Virus record (IMG/VR): IMGVR_UViG_3300013108_000147
Direction: 5' to 3' (one strand)
Source: an uncultured virus (IMG/VR IMGVR_UViG_3300013108_000147)
Taxonomy: Duplodnaviria; Heunggongvirae; Uroviricota; Caudoviricetes; Crassvirales
Length of the DNA: 20,000 nucleotides
A model generated the notes under the pieces. It saw only the letters and a list, made by a program, of their open reading frames with translations, made no database searches and was not told where the DNA came from. The position numbers and the translations under genes were made by a program. How positions within the stretch are numbered: position 1 is the first letter of the stretch; the number at the start of each line of letters is the position of its first letter. Below are positions 2,920 to 15,939 of this stretch, in pieces.

Positions 2920-3795
2920 TTAATTATATTTTTTGTTATACCAAGCTAACTTGTTTAAATCTAGCTTAGCGTTATTAGACTTCATGCTTCCTCCGTTTAT
3001 AAACAGTTTGATTGCTTTTTCTTTGTTTATAATGTTATTGGATTTGTTGTCTTCCTTAGGTGACCAACCTAGTCTAAGTATGTAGTTGAGTAGTGCGTCA
3101 TTACTGATGTTGCTTAAGTCTATCTCATCGGAATCTCTCTTAGACAACTTCTTTCCTGAACTGTGGCATACTAAACCTACGTGTGTAAATTTAGGTAAAT
3201 CTTTTTCAATTACAAAACTTTCGTTCAATAATTTCCAAATTAATGTTTGTTTATACGTATTAGATATGTGGTCTACTCCGCGAACTATCCACGTTACATC
3301 TTCATCGTAGTCGTCTACTGTAGATGCAAAGTTGTATGCCGGTGAGCCGTCAGACTTCATTATAACTTGTTCTGAGGCGTACCCTGCAATTTGGTCGTTA
3401 GCTTTCTTTAAACCTGTCAAAGTATCTGTCCAACTACAAGCGTCAACTTTAGTGGTTCCGTCGTAAAGTTCGTAACCTTTATTAAGTCTTATACATCCGT
3501 CATCTTCGATAGCCATACCTAATTCTACAAGTTGATTAGCTACTTCTCTATATCTGCCAAACCTCTCAGACTGCTTGAAAGTCTTGTCGTAGTCTAGACC
3601 AAGCCGTGATAGTGAATCAAATATGGGTTGTATAAGTTCCTCTCTACTACGTGTTAAGTCAGTGTCATCAACACGGACTATAAACTTAGAGTTTGTGTCT
3701 TGCTTAGATATAAGCCAATTGTGGTAAGCTGTTCTAAGTGTACCTATGTGTAACATACCAGTAGGTGATGGTGCTATTCTAACTATTTCTGCCAT
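2920..3795 (-). CDS. Glutamyl-tRNA synthetase catalytic-domain-only protein (GluRS/GluQ-RS-like, 291 aa)
   Basis: RIAPSPTGMLHIG (HIGH), RVDDTD, QSER, YNFASTVDD, IVRGVDH, KKLSKRD (KMSKS), NYILRLGWS, LDLNKLAWYN, then stop; the C-terminal anticodon-binding domains are absent. Confidence 0.92.
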   Translation of the reverse strand: MAEIVRIAPSPTGMLHIGTLRTAYHNWLISKQDTNSKFIVRVDDTDLTRSREELIQPIFDSLSRLGLDYDKTFKQSERFGRYREVANQLVELGMAIEDDGCIRLNKGYELYDGTTKVDACSWTDTLTGLKKANDQIAGYASEQVIMKSDGSPAYNFASTVDDYDEDVTWIVRGVDHISNTYKQTLIWKLLNESFVIEKDLPKFTHVGLVCHSSGKKLSKRDSDEIDLSNISNDALLNYILRLGWSPKEDNKSNNIINKEKAIKLFINGGSMKSNNAKLDLNKLAWYNKKYN

Positions 3796-5078: not shown

Positions 5079-5288
5079 TTAGCCACAATTAACAGGTTGC
5101 TCTTTTGCCATTGTAGCGTTTTCTAAAATACTTATAGCTTGGTTTAGTTCTGAGATAGCATCTAAATCAGCATCAGTATCGGGGCAAGGTGCATCTATCT
5201 TACAGTTTCTTTTTATAAAACTATTTTCTATAAACGTATCCTTTGCTTTTTCTCGTTGTTCTTTTAGTTGTTGAATAATTCTTTCCAT
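5079..5288 (-). CDS. Cassette-associated hypothetical protein (MERIIQQLKEQ...)
   Basis: ORF track gives 5357 as the longest start; ATG at 5288 lies inside the cassette; stop in GTTA core at 5078. Confidence 0.6.
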   Translation of the reverse strand: MERIIQQLKEQREKAKDTFIENSFIKRNCKIDAPCPDTDADLDAISELNQAISILENATMAKEQPVNCG

Positions 5289-5399
5289 AATTAAATTAAC
5301 TGTGGCTAACACAAAAGATAGTGAATAGCCGATTAAACATTTGTTTTTCATAGCCAAGTTTAAGGTGTCGGCTACTCACCATATTCAAGCACGTTGTAG

Positions 5400-5612
5400 T
5401 TAATGTTTTTTACGAAACTTTCGCCATTTAATTTTAATCCATTCTACTAACACAATCACACCAAAGGCAAGTATTAATATCCCAAATATTGATAAACCTA
5501 TTACGTCTTTCCAATTCCAAAACATTGTTGTATCGTTACCGCAAGAGGTAAAAAACACTAACAACAACATTGTATATAGTGCATAGCTTGTTTTTGTTCT
5601 TAATCGTTTCAT
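5400..5612 (-). CDS. Cassette-associated membrane lipoprotein
   Basis: LLLVFFTSC lipobox plus a second TM helix and basic tail; starts inside attC-like element 5562-5692. Confidence 0.65.
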   Translation of the reverse strand: MKRLRTKTSYALYTMLLLVFFTSCGNDTTMFWNWKDVIGLSIFGILILAFGVIVLVEWIKIKWRKFRKKH

Positions 5613-5698
5613 TTTGCTTTTTATTTAAGTTATTTATAAATCATTATTTCGTGCTATAAGGTCGCTACGACACCATACACTAAGCGTTGTGTGTAATG

Positions 5699-8060: not shown

Positions 8061-9137
8061 TTAAAACGGTAAGTCTCCGTGTTCGTCAGTATCTTCTAGT
8101 AGCTCTTCTTCGTAAAAACCTTCGAAACTGTCTTTTGTCCAATCTTCTACTTCGTCATCAGATATGTAGTCTTGACAACCGTGGCACCAATGCATTTGGA
8201 CTGTTTCGTCATACTCTAGCTCTCCGTATGTGCCACAAGACATACAGACTAAGTCGTCAGTATTACTAACATTGTTGCTTTCGGTGTCTACGAAGTCGTC
8301 ATCATAGTAGTGGTCAAAGTATCTTGAACCTCCGCCGTATTTGTGGTATCTAGACGTTGCCCATTGTGATAAGACCTCTCTGTCTGCAGTTTTGATAGTG
8401 AACTTTGTGCCACCTAAGTTGTCTATAACATCTTGGACAAAGTCTGCAGTTCTAAACACTTCGCTTATGATTATGTACTCATTGTCAGTGTGGGGGTCGT
8501 AGTATCCGCAAGACATATTTGCTACAGATACTTCTAAGCCATTCTTGGTTAACTGATATACATCTGTCAATCCTCCGTCAGCCTCTACCCTATCGTATTG
8601 TGCTAAGTAGGGTGCTACTGCTTGAGAGAATTCATCGCTATATAGTTTAGTGCTATAGATTGAAGATACAAAGTCTGCGTAACCTCGTCTATCACACTGA
8701 AGGACAAACCCTACATCTGAGAAGAAGGACATAAGAGCCACGCTACTGCCTACACAACCTACTTCCTCGTCTCTGAAGAACGCAACCTTTATGTTGTCAG
8801 TGTTGATAAGTGCTTGAAGGGCTACAAATATACCTACTTTATCGTCACCACCTATACCTACTCTCTCGTATTTATCGTTGATAGCGTAGAGTGCATCTTT
8901 ATGGCGTTTAACATGAAATTCTTTCTCTATATCATGTACTGTGTCTGTGTGAGCTACTACGCAAGGGTAAGCGTCTGACTCACCTTTTGTTGCGTAGATG
9001 TTACCCTTGTTTTTACAAACCCTTACACCGGGGATAGTTGATATATAGTCTATTAAAAACTTGTTCATTTGTTTGGTATTGTAGCTAGTAGTTTGTACTG
9101 CCATTACCGATTTTAAATCTTTTAATCTGCTTTCCAT
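8061..9137 (-). CDS. M20/M28-type Zn-dependent peptidase/amidohydrolase with C-terminal Zn-ribbon and acidic tail
   Basis: AHTDTV, GIGGDDKVG, DEEVGCVGS, QCDRRG and YDPHTDNE metal-ligand motifs; CMSC...CHGC; ends DEHGDLPF. Confidence 0.85.
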   Translation of the reverse strand: MESRLKDLKSVMAVQTTSYNTKQMNKFLIDYISTIPGVRVCKNKGNIYATKGESDAYPCVVAHTDTVHDIEKEFHVKRHKDALYAINDKYERVGIGGDDKVGIFVALQALINTDNIKVAFFRDEEVGCVGSSVALMSFFSDVGFVLQCDRRGYADFVSSIYSTKLYSDEFSQAVAPYLAQYDRVEADGGLTDVYQLTKNGLEVSVANMSCGYYDPHTDNEYIIISEVFRTADFVQDVIDNLGGTKFTIKTADREVLSQWATSRYHKYGGGSRYFDHYYDDDFVDTESNNVSNTDDLVCMSCGTYGELEYDETVQMHWCHGCQDYISDDEVEDWTKDSFEGFYEEELLEDTDEHGDLPF

Positions 9138-9160: not shown

Positions 9161-11764
9161 TTATTCTGATTCTTTCATCTCCTCTAAGTACTCTTCATAG
9201 TACTCAACTAACACGTACTCATCGGCATCGGTAACATGATAATCAGAGTGCTCTAAGCTAAACTCTGTACCCGACTGAGCGCATGTTCCCATATCGTCAC
9301 AATCCCTAACATAACCGCCGTTATAATCTACGTAAATAGCGTGAGATTCGTGTATGTACTCTCCGTCAAGCAACTCTACTGCGTCATCGTTCAATATATA
9401 CTCACCTGAATATTCGCAGTAAGTAGCGTTATCTATGTGTGTATTTATTCCTCTACTATCTATGTAAACAGCGTCTCCGCTATATATGTATCTATGATCC
9501 CAATCGTCGTACTCTCTTTCTTCCAAGTTACTGTGCTCACCTTCAGTAGACCTAAGCTCTGTTACCTCGTCACGGCTACTCAAGTACCCCGACAATTCTC
9601 CCGAATCTATATTAAGGTAGTAGAATGTGTCTAAGTAAGGGAATCCATCGTCATCACTTGGTATATGGTCAAGCATAATACTTATGTCTTCAGAGCTCTC
9701 TGTTTCATTTCCGTCAGGAGACACAAAGTTACACGTTGAAGAGTCTTGATGTTCTTTACACCAAAAACCTTTGTCTCTTGCAAAACTCTTGAAAGCGCTG
9801 ATAGTGGCATCAGTACCATATATTCTGTCTAGCCACTTATTATCCCAAAGAAGTGCCCTACCTTTAAGTAGGTCATCCTTAGTTAGAATAACCAATTTAA
9901 CTTGGTTAGGGTTCTCTGTGTATATATCTAACCAAGGTAAACATTGTTCGTGTCTCATGCATGACGAGCCTAGTGTACCTACGTTTTCATTGTGGTGATT
10001 AGAGCCGTCATACCAATGTCTTATATCCTCTCCTGTAACTATACTGAAATTTCCTACGCTATACTCGCCTTTGATAGAGTTAACTAACTTCTCAATCTCG
10101 TGGTCAGTAAACTTCTTTCTAGGTACTTGCTCGCTAAGTACTTTCCTAATCAACTTGCCGTACTTTGACGATTGTCTGCCTTTAGAGCTCCATTTGTAAC
10201 CGTCTGTTATCACAGTCTCCTTGCCTGCAGGCGTGTAAGTCATAGATTGGTCTGCTTTAATCGTGATGTTTCTAGTACTGTCTTTGTAGTAGCCTAAAGA
10301 ACTAATCTTAGTAAGAGTTTTAGCTACAGAGTTTTTATCTGCAAACTTCATTAGAACATTAAATAAACTTTCAGAAAACAATTGTGTCTCTAAGTCAGAG
10401 TTATATCTTGGCGTCATGCTATACAACTTATGTCTTTTACGGAATATTAGTCTTTGACTCCAATTAGATTCTCTAATATTCCTTTCAAAATTAGCTATGT
10501 ATCTCAACGTATCGTTATACTTAGCCGCGTCTTCAGAGTTAGCTCTCCTTATAACTATTTCAGTGTTATCAACCGTAAACGTGTTTCCAAAGTTCGTGCC
10601 GGAGTACCTTATATATTCGCCCGATTGTTTATCAACTACTACTAACTTTCTTGTTTTCCAATACTTAACTAAGCGTTCTTTCCCGTATTTTACTACGTAG
10701 AGTTCTCCCGACCTAAGACTTGTGACTGATAGTGAATCTTCTTTTGTATTACCATTAAGTAAAGCGTAATTAAATGCTCCCGTATCCGCAATGGTAGTTA
10801 TTTCGTAAAGTGCGTGCCCTTTGTAATTAACGAGTAAGTCTAGCACAGTGTTGTAATAACCAACAACGTATTCACCCTCAGACGCAACATAGCCTTCGTA
10901 TACTCTGATTACGGTTATTCCCCCTCCATTCCCAAAACTGTTCTTAATATATAGGGTTGACTTACCTTCTTCAAACAAATCTCTGCTGATAGCTGAGATT
11001 GATTCCTCGCTAAGCTCTACGGGTACGAAACTATCTTCTGTAAATGTTTCGCCTTTATCATGCATTGCAACCCCAGTTGCTTGTCGAAGCGCTTCGTTTA
11101 AATTGAACATTACTGCCTCTACCTCGTACATGTTTCTAACTTTAACAGTGGCTATATTAGGTGCAAAGTGACTATGCTTCTTTTCAATCACTAAAGAGTT
11201 ACCTAACATAAGCCTGCTATTAATCATGTACTTAAAATTTGGTAAAATGTATTGTAGAGTCTCTAAGCTACCGTAGAGTCTTCTTGAGTCTTCTACCATT
11301 ACACCTAGCACACCTTCGCCGTCTATAAGTAGTGTAAGAGACTCATACCCATATTCGTTGTCAGTCATACTACGTATAGCGTCAAGAAGATAAGGTATGT
11401 GTTCACCTAAAGAGTAGTGCAGTGAGGTAAACGCTGTTACAAACTTACTCAAGTCTCTATCTTTTGTACTACTAAAACTTGACGTTGGTGAGCCTTCATA
11501 ATAGCTGAATTCATGTTTTAGAGCCGATTGTAAAAGCTGCTTAGGTATTTCGTCTGACAAACGCAATAGTGGTATATACCCCACATTTAAACAACGCTTA
11601 ACAGATGATACGTTTAAACTATGTATCACAGTATCCGAATGCCTTGCTGTTCTAAACTCTTGCAAGTTAGAGTTGGAGTCTGTTAAAAAGGGTACTGTTA
11701 GTTCCTCGTGGCTTTTGTTCTTGTCTGAATCCGTCAGTAATTCTTCGTGAAAAAGTCTCTTCAT
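9161..11764 (-). CDS. Large phage protein of unknown function (867 aa)
   Basis: Long ORF; C-terminal half has SCMR...GRALLW...WLDRIY...FPYLDTF motifs and acidic Tyr/Cys repeats. Confidence 0.85.
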   Translation of the reverse strand: MKRLFHEELLTDSDKNKSHEELTVPFLTDSNSNLQEFRTARHSDTVIHSLNVSSVKRCLNVGYIPLLRLSDEIPKQLLQSALKHEFSYYEGSPTSSFSSTKDRDLSKFVTAFTSLHYSLGEHIPYLLDAIRSMTDNEYGYESLTLLIDGEGVLGVMVEDSRRLYGSLETLQYILPNFKYMINSRLMLGNSLVIEKKHSHFAPNIATVKVRNMYEVEAVMFNLNEALRQATGVAMHDKGETFTEDSFVPVELSEESISAISRDLFEEGKSTLYIKNSFGNGGGITVIRVYEGYVASEGEYVVGYYNTVLDLLVNYKGHALYEITTIADTGAFNYALLNGNTKEDSLSVTSLRSGELYVVKYGKERLVKYWKTRKLVVVDKQSGEYIRYSGTNFGNTFTVDNTEIVIRRANSEDAAKYNDTLRYIANFERNIRESNWSQRLIFRKRHKLYSMTPRYNSDLETQLFSESLFNVLMKFADKNSVAKTLTKISSLGYYKDSTRNITIKADQSMTYTPAGKETVITDGYKWSSKGRQSSKYGKLIRKVLSEQVPRKKFTDHEIEKLVNSIKGEYSVGNFSIVTGEDIRHWYDGSNHHNENVGTLGSSCMRHEQCLPWLDIYTENPNQVKLVILTKDDLLKGRALLWDNKWLDRIYGTDATISAFKSFARDKGFWCKEHQDSSTCNFVSPDGNETESSEDISIMLDHIPSDDDGFPYLDTFYYLNIDSGELSGYLSSRDEVTELRSTEGEHSNLEEREYDDWDHRYIYSGDAVYIDSRGINTHIDNATYCEYSGEYILNDDAVELLDGEYIHESHAIYVDYNGGYVRDCDDMGTCAQSGTEFSLEHSDYHVTDADEYVLVEYYEEYLEEMKESE

Positions 11765-11815
11765 TTTTTATTGTTTTAATTGTATTTAAGTTTTACTTCT
11801 AGTTCTGATAGTGAA

Positions 11816-11980
11816 TTAACCGTATATGCCGAACTGATAAGTTTGTTCAGTTGTTAGGAGGGTGTACAAAATTAATAAGGCGCACCCCGCTATAAAGCCT
11901 ACTACGCAATAAGATATGCGCATGGTTAATTCTGTAGGCTCTCCGTTGTTGTCTACAAACTTGTTTAAAAGTGTTTTCAT
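11816..11980 (-). CDS. Small membrane protein
   Basis: Probable ATG at 11980 (MKTLLNKF); one TM helix. Confidence 0.6.
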   Translation of the reverse strand: MKTLLNKFVDNNGEPTELTMRISYCVVGFIAGCALLILYTLLTTEQTYQFGIYG

Positions 11981-12089: not shown

Positions 12090-12329
12090 TCATACTTTTG
12101 GTACGTATTGAGTTATATTTCTATCGTCTACATAAATGTCTAGTGGCACATGCCCTGTAACTTCAACCATAACGATTTCTACTGCGTCGCTAGGTATGTC
12201 TACAACTGTTTCAAATTCTGCAGTTGCAAGGTCGTTTGCGCAAACATTGTTAATAAAATGATTTCCACCGTGGTCTACTCGGTTCTTGTTTCCGTTTGCG
12301 TCTGTCCAAACTTGATTAAAATATCCCAT
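12090..12329 (-). CDS. Hypothetical protein
   Basis: ORF track; AT-rich leader. Confidence 0.7.
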   Translation of the reverse strand: MGYFNQVWTDANGNKNRVDHGGNHFINNVCANDLATAEFETVVDIPSDAVEIVMVEVTGHVPLDIYVDDRNITQYVPKV

Positions 12330-12358
12330 TTTCTATTTGATTTTAAGGGTTAAACTTG

Positions 12359-12438
12359 TACCCGCAGTGTGATTCGAACACACGTCTAAACATCTGTGTA
12401 TCATAGATGAATTGTCCTAACCTCTAGACGATGCGGGC
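12359..12438 (-). tRNA. tRNA-Glu-scaffold tRNA-like RNA with aberrant 25-nt anticodon arm (copy 1)
   Basis: GCCCGCA/TGCGGGT acceptor stem, TC-GTCTAGAGGTTAGGAC-A D arm, AGAC variable loop, GTGTG-TTCGAAT-CACAC T arm; no canonical anticodon loop, no encoded CCA. Confidence 0.8.
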
Positions 12439-12451
12439 GCACTTTAATTAT

Positions 12452-12883
12452 TTATATTAAGCTATTACGTAGCTTATCTATAAACGATTCAACCTCATTG
12501 GATTGTTTTTCTATTTCGTCACTCCATACCTTTGCTAGATGAATAGAAAGGATTTGATTTTCTTTTAAAACACGTTCTTTTGTCCAAATATTTTCAGTAC
12601 CAAACCAAACAGTGTCCCATCCTACTACCCACATGTCCTCCATGTCTGCAACCTCTTCCCATCCTATAATATCGTCTGAGTTTTTAGAGAATGTAAGATT
12701 AACATGAGCATGGTGTTCTAACTTCTTATTTATCTCACCATATCCTAAACCGAAGTACGGATGTCTTCTTGGTAGTGCAACATATCCGTTTCCCCAACCT
12801 CCTAACCCTTGTGGAGTCCAAGTGTTTTCTTTTAAAAATGCTTTCATGATATTTATATTAAATTTGTTTATTATCTCAGCCAT
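12452..12883 (-). CDS. Conserved phage hypothetical protein (NGYVALP..HP...LTF...WVVGWD family)
   Basis: ORF track; motif pattern recalled from phage proteins. Confidence 0.75.
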   Translation of the reverse strand: MAEIINKFNINIMKAFLKENTWTPQGLGGWGNGYVALPRRHPYFGLGYGEINKKLEHHAHVNLTFSKNSDDIIGWEEVADMEDMWVVGWDTVWFGTENIWTKERVLKENQILSIHLAKVWSDEIEKQSNEVESFIDKLRNSLI

Positions 12884-13113
12884 CTGTTCAATTTTAAAGC
12901 TATTTTATATCTTAAAGTATTGCCGTGTTTTGCACGATTGATAGTGAACGCTATCTTATAGATTTGATAACCCACGACCATAGCAGTTAAGCCTACAGTT
13001 TTAACTACTACAAATGTTTGTAGGTTAAAGCCATTAGTTTGTTCTGCTAACACTAAGCATAGCCCTGCCATTATAAGCAAAGCTGATATGCTAAAAGTTA
13101 ATATGTGTCTCAT
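12871..13113 (-). CDS. Two-TM membrane protein
   Basis: ORF track; two hydrophobic helices, basic C-terminus. Confidence 0.7.
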   Translation of the reverse strand: MRHILTFSISALLIMAGLCLVLAEQTNGFNLQTFVVVKTVGLTAMVVGYQIYKIAFTINRAKHGNTLRYKIALKLNRWLR

Positions 13114-13115
13114 GA

Positions 13116-13268
13116 TTATATTAGTTTTAATTGCCTTTGCATTTCTTTATAGCGCATAATATCCCACGCTTTTTTATAGCCTATGTTATGTAATTGCATT
13201 AATTTATGCACCATTTTTTCTTCGATAGACTGCACTCGCATACGTCTACGTTTTGGTTTATTTGCCAT
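13116..13268 (-). CDS. Small basic protein (50 aa, MANKPKRRRMRVQSIEEK...)
   Basis: Manually translated; AT-rich leader, abuts next gene. Confidence 0.6.
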   Translation of the reverse strand: MANKPKRRRMRVQSIEEKMVHKLMQLHNIGYKKAWDIMRYKEMQRQLKLI

Positions 13269-13291
13269 TTTTATTTAATTTAATTGATTTG

Positions 13292-13371
13292 CACCCATAG
13301 ACAGATTCGAACTGCCGTCTATACACCGCGACGATTTTAGTGTATTGTCCTAGCCACTAGACGATATGGGC
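13292..13371 (-). tRNA. tRNA-Glu-scaffold tRNA-like RNA with aberrant 25-nt anticodon arm (copy 2)
   Basis: GCCCATA/TATGGGT acceptor stem, TC-GTCTAGTGGCTAGGAC-A D arm, ATACAC-13nt-GTGTAT arm, AGAC, GGCAG-TTCGAAT-CTGTC T arm. Confidence 0.8.
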
Positions 13372-13375
13372 ATGA

Positions 13376-13408
13376 TATAAAAAGCCCTACACTTTTACAT
13401 GTAGGGCT
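13376..13408 (-). terminator. Terminator-like hairpin between Rho-N gene and tRNA-like copy 2
   Basis: AGCCCTACA-8nt-TGTAGGGCT (13383-13408) running into a T-run on minus strand. Confidence 0.6.
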
Positions 13409-13438
13409 GTGAGGGATATGGATTGAGGCAAAAAAGGT

Positions 13439-13861
13439 TTATGCCGTTACTAAAGCTATTAATTCAGCTTTTTTCATCTTTGAAAATTTGGTTTTACCTT
13501 GTTTTTTAGCTACCTCTTTAAGCTGCGCTACGTTCATCTTCTCAATTGGAGTTAATGTAGGTGCAGTATCAGATAAATTCGCAGCGCTTTTAATAGCCTT
13601 GTGTATTGCTTGTAACACAAAGAATGGGCTGTAATTTCCTGCCTTTGAAACTCGCACGTTCTCCTTGAATGTAGCGTAAACATCGTTGTTTTCTCTAATC
13701 TCACTCAATATTTGAATGTATTGCGTGCTAAGCTCTATTTCATCTCTAAAAAGCCACAGTATTTTTACTGCACCTCCTAATGATTTGCACTCTCGTTTTA
13801 ACGCCTTGTTAGTGTTTAAAACGTTCATTTTGTAAGCTGAAATTTTGTTTGATTTTGCCAT
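13439..13861 (-). CDS. Protein with C-terminal Rho termination factor N-terminal (HeH-like) nucleic-acid-binding domain
   Basis: IEKMNVAQLKEVAKKQGKTKFSKMKKAELIALV matches the Rho_N consensus. Confidence 0.8.
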   Translation of the reverse strand: MAKSNKISAYKMNVLNTNKALKRECKSLGGAVKILWLFRDEIELSTQYIQILSEIRENNDVYATFKENVRVSKAGNYSPFFVLQAIHKAIKSAANLSDTAPTLTPIEKMNVAQLKEVAKKQGKTKFSKMKKAELIALVTA

Positions 13862-13903: not shown

Positions 13904-14604
13904 ATGCCCATGACAATATGCACTACGTGTCATGGGCTATTGATATGTACCACTTTTGTGGATTTCACGCACTGGTTTACTGCGCTTATGTAAATATATG
14001 TATACGGATTTATTCCGTTGGTGTAACTTAATAAAATGTTGGGTTTTTTTGAGCCTTGAAATATACACGTTAGTACCACAGCTATTTTATTGTACTTTTG
14101 ATAACTCATTACCTAGAGATAAAACCCGTCTGAAAAATGTTGGCGTATCGCTGACTAATGTATATGCAGGTTAGTTTCATACCTTTCCTGCCAACCACTC
14201 GAATAATCACGCTAGGGTATTTTACTCCCATTGTCACGCAGTGGCAACCTTTTTACACCTTTACGGTGCCCTATATGCGTTCACGCTTCTCACGCCCAAC
14301 TGATAGGTTTTAATTCGTTTCAGTAAGGATTCTACTCACTTTGCGCTATAATAGTAGTTTAACGTGACTAAACTCGCCATACGATTCACCCAATGCGCTG
14401 CACTCCTAATGCTTGACCATACCTGTGCTTACAGGGCATTTCACCCTTATTATATGCTTACACCTTTGTGCTTAGCATACCTGCTGAATTGCAGTACACG
14501 TGTAGAATTGCCATTCTACCATGGCGCCATTGTGGCTCCAAAACTACTTCGCTACCTAGTAACAAAGTTTTAAAATCATGTTGAAATCGTTATTTCGTTT
14601 CAAC
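13904..14604 (-). ncRNA. Candidate large structured non-coding RNA / leader (~700 nt)
   Basis: No minus-strand ORF of 60 aa or more; many hairpins; promoter directly upstream; closing 10-bp hairpin at 13906-13937. Confidence 0.5.
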
Positions 14605-14616: not shown

Positions 14617-14635
14617 CGTGGCATTTTTGACATAG

Positions 14636-15939
14636 TAAAATCCTGATAATCAAGCAGTTAGAAATTAAAGTGTTGATAATCAGACAGTTAGCTAAGTAGC
14701 TGAGTATCAAGGACTTAAGCAAAATGCCTTCTCGGTTAAAGCGCTGAGTATCAGGTAGTTAGCTTGTTTGTAATCGCCGTTTTTCCCAAACTGAAAACCT
14801 AGAGTAAAAAAAATTCAAAAAAAATTAAAAAGGGCTTATAAGTAACTGATATTCAAGTAGTTACAAGCAAAAAAAATTTTAAAATTAGCTTTAAAGTTAA
14901 AAGGTTGATAATCAAGCAGTTATAAAATCGAGTTTGTAAGTAGCTGAGTATCAATAAGTTATAAATTTAAAAAATTACGTTTGTAAGTATCTGAGAATCA
15001 AGTAGTTAGAGTAAGTAGTTGATAATGAGGCAGTTACGTTAAAGTGTTGATACTCAAGTAGTTAGATTAAAACGTAGTTAAAAGTTAAAGCGCTGAAAAT
15101 CAGGTAGTTAAGTTTTGGCTAGGTAGCAGTTAAACTAAAGTACTGATACTCAAGGGTTTAGGTACAAAGAGTGTTTGTAAGTAGCTGAGGTTCAGGCAGT
15201 TACGATTCTGGCTCATAAGGTAGATTAAAGGTAAAACGTTGATAATGAGGCAGTTACGGCTAAGTAGCTGAGTATCAGGCGCTTACACCGGCACCGAGAA
15301 TTAAATAGTCGTAACTATCTGAAAGTCAGGCAATTAGGCGTAACTATCTGAGAATCAGGCGCTTACACTGGCACCGAGACTTAAATAGGCGTAACTATCT
15401 GAGTATCAGGCGCTTACACCGGCAAGCATATTTAAGTAGTTGTAACTATCTGAGAATCAGGTAATTAGACGTAACTAATTGATAATGAGGCAGTTAGATT
15501 AACTCTTAAAGTATATGGAATTCGCGCGCGCGTAAAGAGCGTAACTATCTGAGAATGAAGCAGTTAGACGTAACTAATTGATAATGAGGCAGTTACGGTA
15601 GAGTGGGTGAATTGAGTGGGTAAATAATTGATAATGAGGCAGTTACGGGTAAGTGTTTGATAGTCAAATGATTAGAGTATAAGTAGTTAATAGTAATATA
15701 TAAGCCTGAGTATCAAGCAGTTAGAATAAAAAACCTACAATACATAACTGTTAAGCGCCTGATTGTCAAGGTGTTAAGTTTGTTAAGCTAGTGTTTAACA
15801 GATTTTACAGATACATTAGACAAAAGATGTAACTATCTGAGTATCAGCGATTTAGACTAGTGTTTTAGGGCATTTCAATAAATAAGTTATTAAAAAAGTC
15901 AAAAAATTTGCTCGTAAAAGCCTGAAAATCAAGCCCGTA
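14636..15939. repeat. Array of ~28 quasi-palindromic 25-bp repeats TAA-N5-TGA-N3-T(C/G)A-N5-TTA (IHF-consensus-like)
   Basis: Copies counted by eye from 14636 to 15915; right half fits WATCARNNNNTTR in most copies. Confidence 0.9.

Follow-up and report, generated by a model that had tools for sequence, protein, structure and literature searches.

Why would a phage keep two genes that have the shape of a tRNA but lack an anticodon? The question is raised by a 20,000-nucleotide (nt) stretch of DNA from an uncultured member of the Crassvirales (IMG/VR record IMGVR_UViG_3300013108_000147), hereafter called the window, which holds two tRNA-Glu-like elements on its minus strand, A (12359..12438) and B (13292..13371). 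On the same strand, 9 kb downstream of them, lies a gene for the catalytic core of a glutamyl-tRNA synthetase (GluRS; 2920..3795). We tentatively propose, as a reading somewhat short of an even chance, that A and B are non-decoding tRNA-Glu mimics that are bound, and probably glutamylated, by this anticodon-blind enzyme of the phage.

Two tRNA-like elements with replaced anticodon arms

The gene layout across the window is of phage type, with a long series of small open reading frames (ORFs) on the minus strand as far as about 14.1 kb and ORFs on the plus strand past there, and 93-97% of the sampled words of the window are present in three marine/seawater metagenome runs. A first-pass annotation made from the sequence alone had described two tRNA-like paralogues of 80 nt, and both were found where it had placed them, on the minus strand, which it had left unstated. 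Each covers the full Rfam tRNA model (RF00005, positions 1-71; gathering score 29 bits), with 41.3 bits for A and 50.7 bits for B (E-values of 7.6e-06 and 2e-08 for the 20-kb window), and the surplus letters fall in the anticodon loop. Both form a cloverleaf with a 7-base-pair (bp) acceptor stem, a D arm, a T arm and a T loop. The acceptor stem is GCCCGCA/UGCGGGU in A, with discriminator A, and GCCCAUA/UAUGGGU in B, with discriminator G; CCA is encoded in neither. The shared features that had been listed are all present, namely the G1:U72 pair, near-identical D arms (D stem GUCU/GGAC), the variable loop AGAC and the T loop UUCGAAU. Between A and B, five of the 12 pairs of the acceptor and T stems differ (5:68, 6:67, 50:64, 51:63 and 52:62), and all five are still paired, which bears out the compensatory changes that had been noticed.

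ARAGORN, which had been expected not to call the elements, found no tRNA and no transfer-messenger RNA (tmRNA) gene in the whole window, and a blastn search with window positions 12300-13450 against phage records gave no match. RNA run X4 contained one 151-nt contig, at 12680-12830, which lies in an ORF between A and B and is uninformative on both elements. The minimum-energy fold of the whole molecule, in which the 5' strand of the D stem pairs with the variable loop, was set aside as an artefact, the variable loop resembling the 3' strand of the D stem.

Instead of a 17-nt anticodon arm, each element has 25 nt (arm A, 12388..12412; arm B, 13321..13345, both on the minus strand), and the two arms are unrelated in sequence. 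Folded alone, arm A forms a 5-bp stem (-3.2 kcal/mol; 38/200 shuffles as good) and arm B a 7-bp stem with an 11-nt loop (-4.2 kcal/mol; 11/200 shuffles as good). The earlier remark that both arms are able to form stems is therefore correct as far as it goes, but for arm A the fold is not beyond chance. In the Rfam alignment, 15 letters fall in the anticodon loop; in the separate fold of arm A, the 5-bp inner stem encloses a 9-nt region. As had been claimed, neither arm contains a 7-nt loop that combines U33 with a Glu anticodon, and the combination that makes a functional decoder (5-bp stem, 7-nt loop, U33 and anticodon) is found in neither A nor B.

The bodies retain tRNA-Glu identity

Outside the arm, the elements resemble the tRNA-Glu genes of other phages. 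A 21-letter D-arm pattern matched 13 other viral loci, at 12 of which ARAGORN called a normal 72-nt tRNA-Glu (UUC or CUC) and at one an odd 71-nt gene. When 13 canonical phage tRNA-Glu genes were aligned with six mimics, 96.7% of the stem cells in the 19 sequences were paired and 17 of the 21 pairs changed on both sides, a level reached by 0/500 shuffles. The pair U13-G22 is present in 19/19 and U11-A24 in 18/19 of the sequences, and the variable loop has four letters. These positions matter in Escherichia coli, for which PMC9976931 names as major tRNA-Glu determinants U11-A24 and U13-G22 with A46 and no residue 47, together with U34, U35, C36 and A37 of the anticodon region. Both A and B have the whole body set (U11-A24, U13-G22 with A46, no residue 47). 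Judged by their nucleotides, the mimics thus retain the body half of the tRNA-Glu identity set without the anticodon half.

The canonical phage genes share with the mimics the D arm, the four-letter variable loop and the T loop, and differ from them in a 17-nt arm, a UUC/CUC anticodon and their recognition by ARAGORN, none of which applies to the window's pair. The G1:U72 pair is not special to the mimics. It occurs in six of the 19 aligned sequences, four of which are ordinary phage tRNA-Glu genes, and it is seen in the canonical genes of loci L004, L005 and L011.

A truncated GluRS on the same strand

The GluRS core was missed in the first-pass annotation. It is a 291-amino-acid (aa) minus-strand product that matches Pfam tRNA-synt_1c with an E-value of 5.8e-50, and the HIGH and KLSKR motifs of this class I Glu/Gln synthetase catalytic domain are intact. 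The protein aligns to residues 5-310 of a solved 468-aa GluRS and to profile positions up to 315 of 470 in gltX_bact (TIGR00464), where it scores 225.9 bits, below the cut-off of 289.95. The core is of bacterial type (gltX_bact E 9e-67 vs gltX_arch E 5e-23). It can thus be assigned to the GluRS catalytic domain, and lacks both the anticodon-binding domain and the equivalog score of a full GluRS.

The truncation is shared among phages. The GluRS anticodon-binding domain (PF19269) is absent in 5/5 related records, two of them complete genomes, and seven aligned phage cores have a common end point and invariant catalytic motifs (7/7). A protein search with the core gave 7916 matches at E <= 1e-10 among 8000 candidates scored, of which the best 120 are 42-94% identical to it, close relatives at 72-94% included. 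Since these listed relatives are mostly 277-333 aa long (range 234-365), the truncated form is a stable family. A scan of viral contigs with the single GluRS core sequence gave no confirmed relative; a metagenome scan with an alignment of close relatives yielded, among the matches listed, genes 31-39% identical.

A comparable architecture is known from GluQRS (YadB), a truncated GluRS paralogue that glutamylates queuosine-34 of tRNA-Asp and is described as a GluRS catalytic core of about 290-300 aa without an anticodon-binding domain (PMC3542578). The phage core differs from it in score, reaching 141.9 bits on the YadB model TIGR03838 (cut-off 276.7) vs 225.9 on gltX_bact, so that by score it does not belong to the GluQRS/YadB family. 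It differs also in context, adjoining tRNA-Glu genes and not tRNA-Asp genes. Moreover, GluQRS modifies an anticodon base, whereas the RNA partner proposed here has no anticodon loop.

Cores and mimics in other phages

An alignment-based scan yielded 30 viral loci with a GluRS core, and ARAGORN was run on 24 of them. Eight of the 24 have 1-4 canonical tRNA-Glu genes within about 2.2 kb (directly upstream in five), which suggests that the core is a partner of tRNA-Glu; in these eight loci tRNA-Glu accounts for 21 of the 49 tRNAs called. It is in larger phages that the core adjoins such canonical genes. In two further loci, L038 and L044, it is tRNA-Glu bodies without an anticodon that lie near the core, and the remaining 14 have no Glu-type gene within 10 kb.

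Locus L038 contains four tandem mimics (5263-5637) with arms of 18, ~60, 20 and 34 nt, each followed by an encoded CCA. The 18-nt arm of copy 1 consists of a 7-bp stem and a four-base loop, and copies 1 and 4 have near-identical bodies with wholly different arms. ARAGORN mislabels three of the four bodies, as tRNA-Thr, tRNA-Tyr and undetermined. Locus L044 has one mimic with a 36-nt arm and an encoded CCA, and a GC-rich hairpin lies 3 nt upstream of it. The window, L044 and L038 share the same one-strand order, from the mimic or mimics through a phrog_4191 metallopeptidase to the GluRS core, although the cores of the three lineages are only 41-44% identical to one another.

A covariance model built from the 19 sequences found only mimics in small phages: two in G001, three in G020 and one in G024, which is a complete genome. 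G001 is a viral record almost identical to the window, beginning near window position 12270, and is not independent of it. In three lineages of 55-70 kb, the sole tRNA-like genes are anticodon-less tRNA-Glu bodies upstream of the core. Because the stem changes are compensatory and such bodies recur in two other lineages and in many contigs, the earlier view that these are selected, non-decoding mimics and not genes in decay is supported by the sequences.

The jumbo-phage fragments with the cores most similar to that of the window (G012, G013 and G015, loci L060-L089; 56-60% identity) have tRNA matches in arrays of 15-22. In these arrays tRNA-Gln(UUG), Pro, Lys and Tyr are each present in several copies, and some members are oversize, at 90-127 nt. 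At six loci (L003, L007-L010 and L013, around 1219-1726), the Rfam 'freshwater-1' small RNA lies about 100 nt from a phage tRNA-Glu gene, and five of them (not L008) show a 125-nt RF00005 match, in which about 54 nt are inserted into a tRNA shape.

Expanded tRNA-Glu-type bodies beyond the core loci

A looser pattern recovered 33 distinct tRNA-Glu-type bodies in viral contigs, with 29-57 letters between D arm and T arm. About two dozen of these have hairpin-replaced arms of 20-48 nt, and a few have a normal anticodon arm and a long variable arm. Among the matches listed for prokaryote genomes, the same pattern found many archaeal genes, an actinobacterial group and a Bacteroidetes group; going by their titles, the archaeal matches are probably intron-bearing tRNAs. 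In Rfam these bodies match RF00005 (tRNA) only.

The bacterial groups are themselves diverse. Closed-hairpin arms of 42-43 nt on tRNA-Glu-type bodies were seen in the Bacteroidetes-type genomes L239, L247, L288 and L304, and hairpin arms of 23-27 nt in Actinobacteria (L213-L233, L256, L272-L276 and L290-L325). The Streptomyces look-alikes stand in mixed contexts, one beside an integrase and a helix-turn-helix gene and others beside unrelated genes.

A conserved body and a fast-changing arm

A metagenome of another study (run X5) holds a relative that is less than 90% identical to the window. The comparison of element A with this relative covers the arm and the 3' body; the 5' 26 nt of the body fall within the roughly 32 nt at the end of an aligned piece in which differences go unlisted. 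All six substitutions in element A fall in its arm (12388, 12389, 12396, 12403, 12405 and 12407), and the arm of the relative is extended by an insertion of 21 nt behind 12392. Over the 29 nt of the 3' body no difference is listed, and the flank at 12090-12358 (269 nt) has 16, or about 6%. This pattern suggests a body under constraint and an arm that is free, and is consistent with the charging pair that we propose.

The surroundings of the elements are also unstable. Homology to the X5 relative breaks exactly at the 5' ends of both elements, 12438 and 13371. In the relative, 224 different letters stand where the window has 12439-12861 and 327 where it has 13072-13109, and 174 are inserted at 13371/13375. 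The stretch between A and B is likewise rearranged in variant contigs of runs X2 and X3, with 12336-12371 joined to 12862-12895. The DNA inserted near the elements in relatives could hold more tRNA-like copies.

The first-pass annotation had taken the equal length of the two arms as a sign of selection on shape. Because the X5 relative has an insertion in arm A and the arms of related phages range from 18 to about 60 nt (18, 20, 34, 36 and ~60 nt), the mimic locus is variable and the equal 25-nt arms are a coincidence of this genome. Random arm lengths and eroded stems had been named together as signs that would refute the annotation's reading. The first is what we observe, which refutes the part on arm length, and the second is not, as the stems are intact.

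The arms might also act as guides, a further suggestion of the annotation. Our search for antisense targets covered about 20 kb of each phage and no host genome, and comprised six tests. In the window, no target of arm A stood out above shuffles, 97/100 of which do as well. The best window match of arm B is 12 nt long and is reached by 3/100 shuffles, but it has the same sense as the plus-strand genes there and is not complementary to their mRNAs. A guide with complementary targets thus finds no convincing match in the window. In L044, positions 11773-11786 are a 14-nt perfect complement to the apical part of that phage's own mimic arm, a length that 0/100 shuffled arms reach; the site is not at a start but midway along an ORF of 70 aa (11658-11870), which has the GluRS core on one side and a DnaB-like helicase on the other.

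A charging pair outside decoding?

Our model builds on what was observed above: a tRNA shape with tRNA-Glu identity nucleotides and no anticodon loop, a fast-changing arm, a truncated enzyme with intact motifs, and the repeated genomic association of the two. From these we infer that the mimics are transcribed, processed, bound, charged and put to use downstream. They would keep the surface that the catalytic core of GluRS reads, that is, the acceptor helix, the D helix with U11-A24 and U13-G22 together with A46 and no residue 47, and the T arm, and would have lost the part that is read by the anticodon-binding domain and the ribosome. The host would add CCA to their 3' ends. The 291-aa core may then bind the mimics and, most likely, attach glutamate to these ends. 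The product would be a glutamyl-RNA barred from decoding, and its user could be a host enzyme or an unrecognised phage protein.

Several functions had been listed in the first-pass annotation, and among them the amino-acid carrier gains most from the finding that the phage has, in the same genome, a GluRS core devoid of the anticodon-binding domain. That the acceptor end matters is suggested by the CCA encoded in 4/4 copies of L038 and in the L044 copy. A decoy for anticodon nucleases is unlikely, as no arm imitates an anticodon loop. Further, we consider a self-contained, anticodon-independent charging pair of the phage, making a ribosome-unusable glutamyl-RNA as a private glutamate donor or signal, to be a speculative extension that is more probably wrong than right by a good measure. 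Such an RNA could be a substrate for a host enzyme to which the tRNA-Glu body alone matters, or for a phage transferase as yet unrecognised, and the swappable arm could let one scaffold display different hairpins.

A number of observations weigh against charging by the core. Core and mimics are no obligate pair, since each also occurs without the other: the complete 62-kb genome G027 encodes core and peptidase, yet nothing in it matches the tRNA-Glu model at E <= 1e-4, and a GluRS gene (PF00749) is found in 0/32 other viral records with expanded bodies (outside G001 and L206, which is G024). Five Bacteroidetes-type genomes, four from the group with 42-43-nt arms and L215, hold only full-length gltX or glnS. 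A and B have G1:U72 and C2-G71 and so depart from G1-C72 and U2-A71, which PMC9976931 gives as weak determinants of E. coli tRNA-Glu. The known users of Glu-tRNA that we searched for, GluTR, GatB and the LanB N-domain, were not found in G001, G020, G024 and G027, the LanB search being one that matched no control genome either. Finally, the nine-kb spacing of mimics and core could reflect descent from a cassette of GluRS and tRNA-Glu, not present function.

Comparison with known tRNA mimics

The tRNA-like domain of bacterial tmRNA has acceptor and T arms and no anticodon, and is charged by AlaRS, which reads the acceptor helix; tmRNA carries an mRNA-like reading frame and acts on stalled ribosomes together with SmpB. 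The mimics likewise keep acceptor and T arms without an anticodon. They differ from tmRNA in being only 80 nt long, in having a full D arm and in the absence of a tag frame (ARAGORN: no tmRNA). The amino acid would here be Glu, and the synthetase itself is cut down.

Engineered tRNA scaffolds and the herpesvirus tRNA-miRNA (TMER) RNAs use a tRNA body as a processing and stability handle for an unrelated hairpin. The TMER hairpins come after the tRNA instead of replacing its anticodon arm, and the engineered scaffolds are artificial.

Viral mimics of tRNA that become aminoacylated, some classes of them without a normal anticodon arm, are described for the tRNA-like structures (TLSs) of plant RNA viruses (PMC10870377; PMC11791061). 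A TLS forms the 3' end of an RNA genome and depends on synthetases of the host, whereas the genes described here are free-standing, belong to a DNA phage and come with its own cut-down synthetase. In the open-access literature searched, we found no account of a phage that pairs a GluRS core with tRNA-Glu genes lacking an anticodon. The mimics are best filed, as far as their sequences indicate, as a variant of the aminoacylatable tRNA mimic, with an unusual matched synthetase.

Alternative explanations

There is some chance, well below that of a charging pair, that the elements are tRNA-scaffolded effector RNAs. The body would then provide RNase P/Z processing, CCA addition and stability, and the arm would be a guide, aptamer or bait, possibly in counter-defence, with the link to GluRS inherited and not functional. 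Such a design would explain why paralogues such as A and B, or copies 1 and 4 of L038, combine near-identical bodies with wholly different arms, why the arm changes faster than its flanks at a hot spot of insertion and replacement, and why elements occur in phages without a GluRS gene. The 14-nt match in L044 speaks for a guide as well, but it lies mid-ORF and is one match among six tests, and neither arm A, with no match above shuffles, nor arm B, with a match not complementary to mRNAs, adds to it. In arms made of a 7-bp stem and a four-base loop there is, moreover, little room for a guide.

We regard it as unlikely that the mimics inhibit, or serve as uncleavable decoys for, a host factor that identifies tRNA-Glu by its body, for example a toxin (nuclease, kinase or transferase) directed at tRNA-Glu or at its GluRS-bound form. 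The kept body and the replacement of the anticodon loop by closed hairpins, some with stable four-base loops, would suit a decoy, and hypervariability is typical of conflict loci. Jumbo phages with the same core have 2-4 additional tRNA-Glu genes, as might be expected under an attack on the supply of tRNA-Glu, and this explanation, too, accounts for the phages that have elements and no GluRS gene. However, no tRNA-Glu-directed defence system was identified, and none of bacterial type was found in the literature at the level of abstracts. A stoichiometric decoy is also a weak strategy against an enzyme, and the CCA encoded in L038 and L044 would be superfluous in a decoy for a loop nuclease.

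An improbable view is that the tRNA shape serves only as processing punctuation, directing RNase P and RNase Z/E cuts in a long minus-strand transcript and thereby uncoupling the stability of the flanking mRNAs. Both elements do lie between ORFs of one long same-strand block, the breaks in homology coincide exactly with their 5' ends at 12438 and 13371, and RNase P is indifferent to the arm. Four tandem copies, as in L038, nevertheless suit RNA dosage and not cut sites; the tRNA-Glu D helix, the four-letter variable loop and the CCA exceed the needs of RNase P, and B comes after a terminator-like hairpin.

Even less weight can be given to decaying tRNA-Glu pseudogenes with insertions in the anticodon loop. 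This explanation would fit the irregular arm lengths and the failure of ARAGORN to call either element, and copies of tRNA-Glu with loop insertions do occur singly in ordinary bacterial tRNA-Glu arrays (for example in L259). It is at odds with the five compensatory pair changes and the lack of any broken pair between A and B, with the three phage lineages that keep mimics as their sole tRNA-like genes and the CCA kept in all L038 copies, and with the 3' half of body A, which is unchanged in the X5 relative though the flanks differ by about 6%.

Decoding tRNAs with a mini-intron, whose splicing would restore a 7-nt anticodon loop, are suggested by the surplus letters in the anticodon loop of the Rfam alignment and by the many archaeal genes that match the same DNA pattern, but are hardly credible. 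Whichever 8 contiguous letters are removed from A or B, no loop results that has both U33 and a Glu anticodon, and in L038 copy 1 the 18-nt arm leaves no place for an anticodon loop at all. The gltX scores mark the phage as bacterial in type, and a scan of 44 window ORFs revealed no splicing enzyme.

Other genes and signals in the window

Between the mimics and the core, the window encodes on its minus strand the M20/M28-like metallopeptidase of phrog_4191 (8061..9137), which is present also in L044 and L038. In four small-phage lineages this peptidase follows a large protein of no known family and lies 0.3-4.2 kb from the core; the coordinates are window 8061-9137, L044 4222-5865, L038 8058-9701 and L047 13741-15378. 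The large protein of the window has 867 aa (9161..11764, minus strand) and lies directly downstream of A, to which it is a neighbour only. It has no Pfam, PHROG, NCBIfam or Atlas match and no confirmed relative in viral contigs, and BLASTP showed no likeness to the proteins that precede the peptidase in L038 and L047. Three small minus-strand ORFs of 143, 80 and 50 aa (12452..13268) lie between A and B and are partly replaced in the X5 relative.

The terminator-like signal near B is a GC-rich hairpin with a T run on the minus strand (13383..13408), which ends 11 nt upstream of the 5' end of B. The best sigma-70-like promoter, a candidate for the mimic block, is at 14219..14247 on the minus strand; it agrees with the consensus at 10/12 positions, and the number of such matches equals that in shuffles. 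Past it, at the divergent strand switch, an ORF-free stretch of 1.2 kb (14620-15860) contains about 30 copies of an imperfect palindromic unit of 26-28 nt, in families of 11, 7, 7, 6 and 5 copies, and 16 pairs of them are inverted. The arrangement resembles that of iterons or of an array of protein-binding sites, and may mark an origin or a partition site. The minus-strand block further encodes a denV-type pyrimidine-dimer glycosylase (206-568; Pfam E 2.3e-14) and a 51-aa ORF with a PspC domain (1343-1498).

Implications

Phage tRNA genes are usually read as codon supply or as spare parts against nucleases. Even without charging, the mimics described here represent a widespread and uncurated class, with about two dozen phage contigs and several bacterial groups, that is seen only by Rfam's generic tRNA model. 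If core and mimics do work together, aminoacylation without regard to the anticodon would have a natural example in this pair, and tRNA identity would be reducible to its acceptor and D-helix half. Such a pair would provide synthetic biology with a ready-made enzyme and scaffold. For the phages themselves, it would mean that glutamyl-tRNA is used outside translation during infection.

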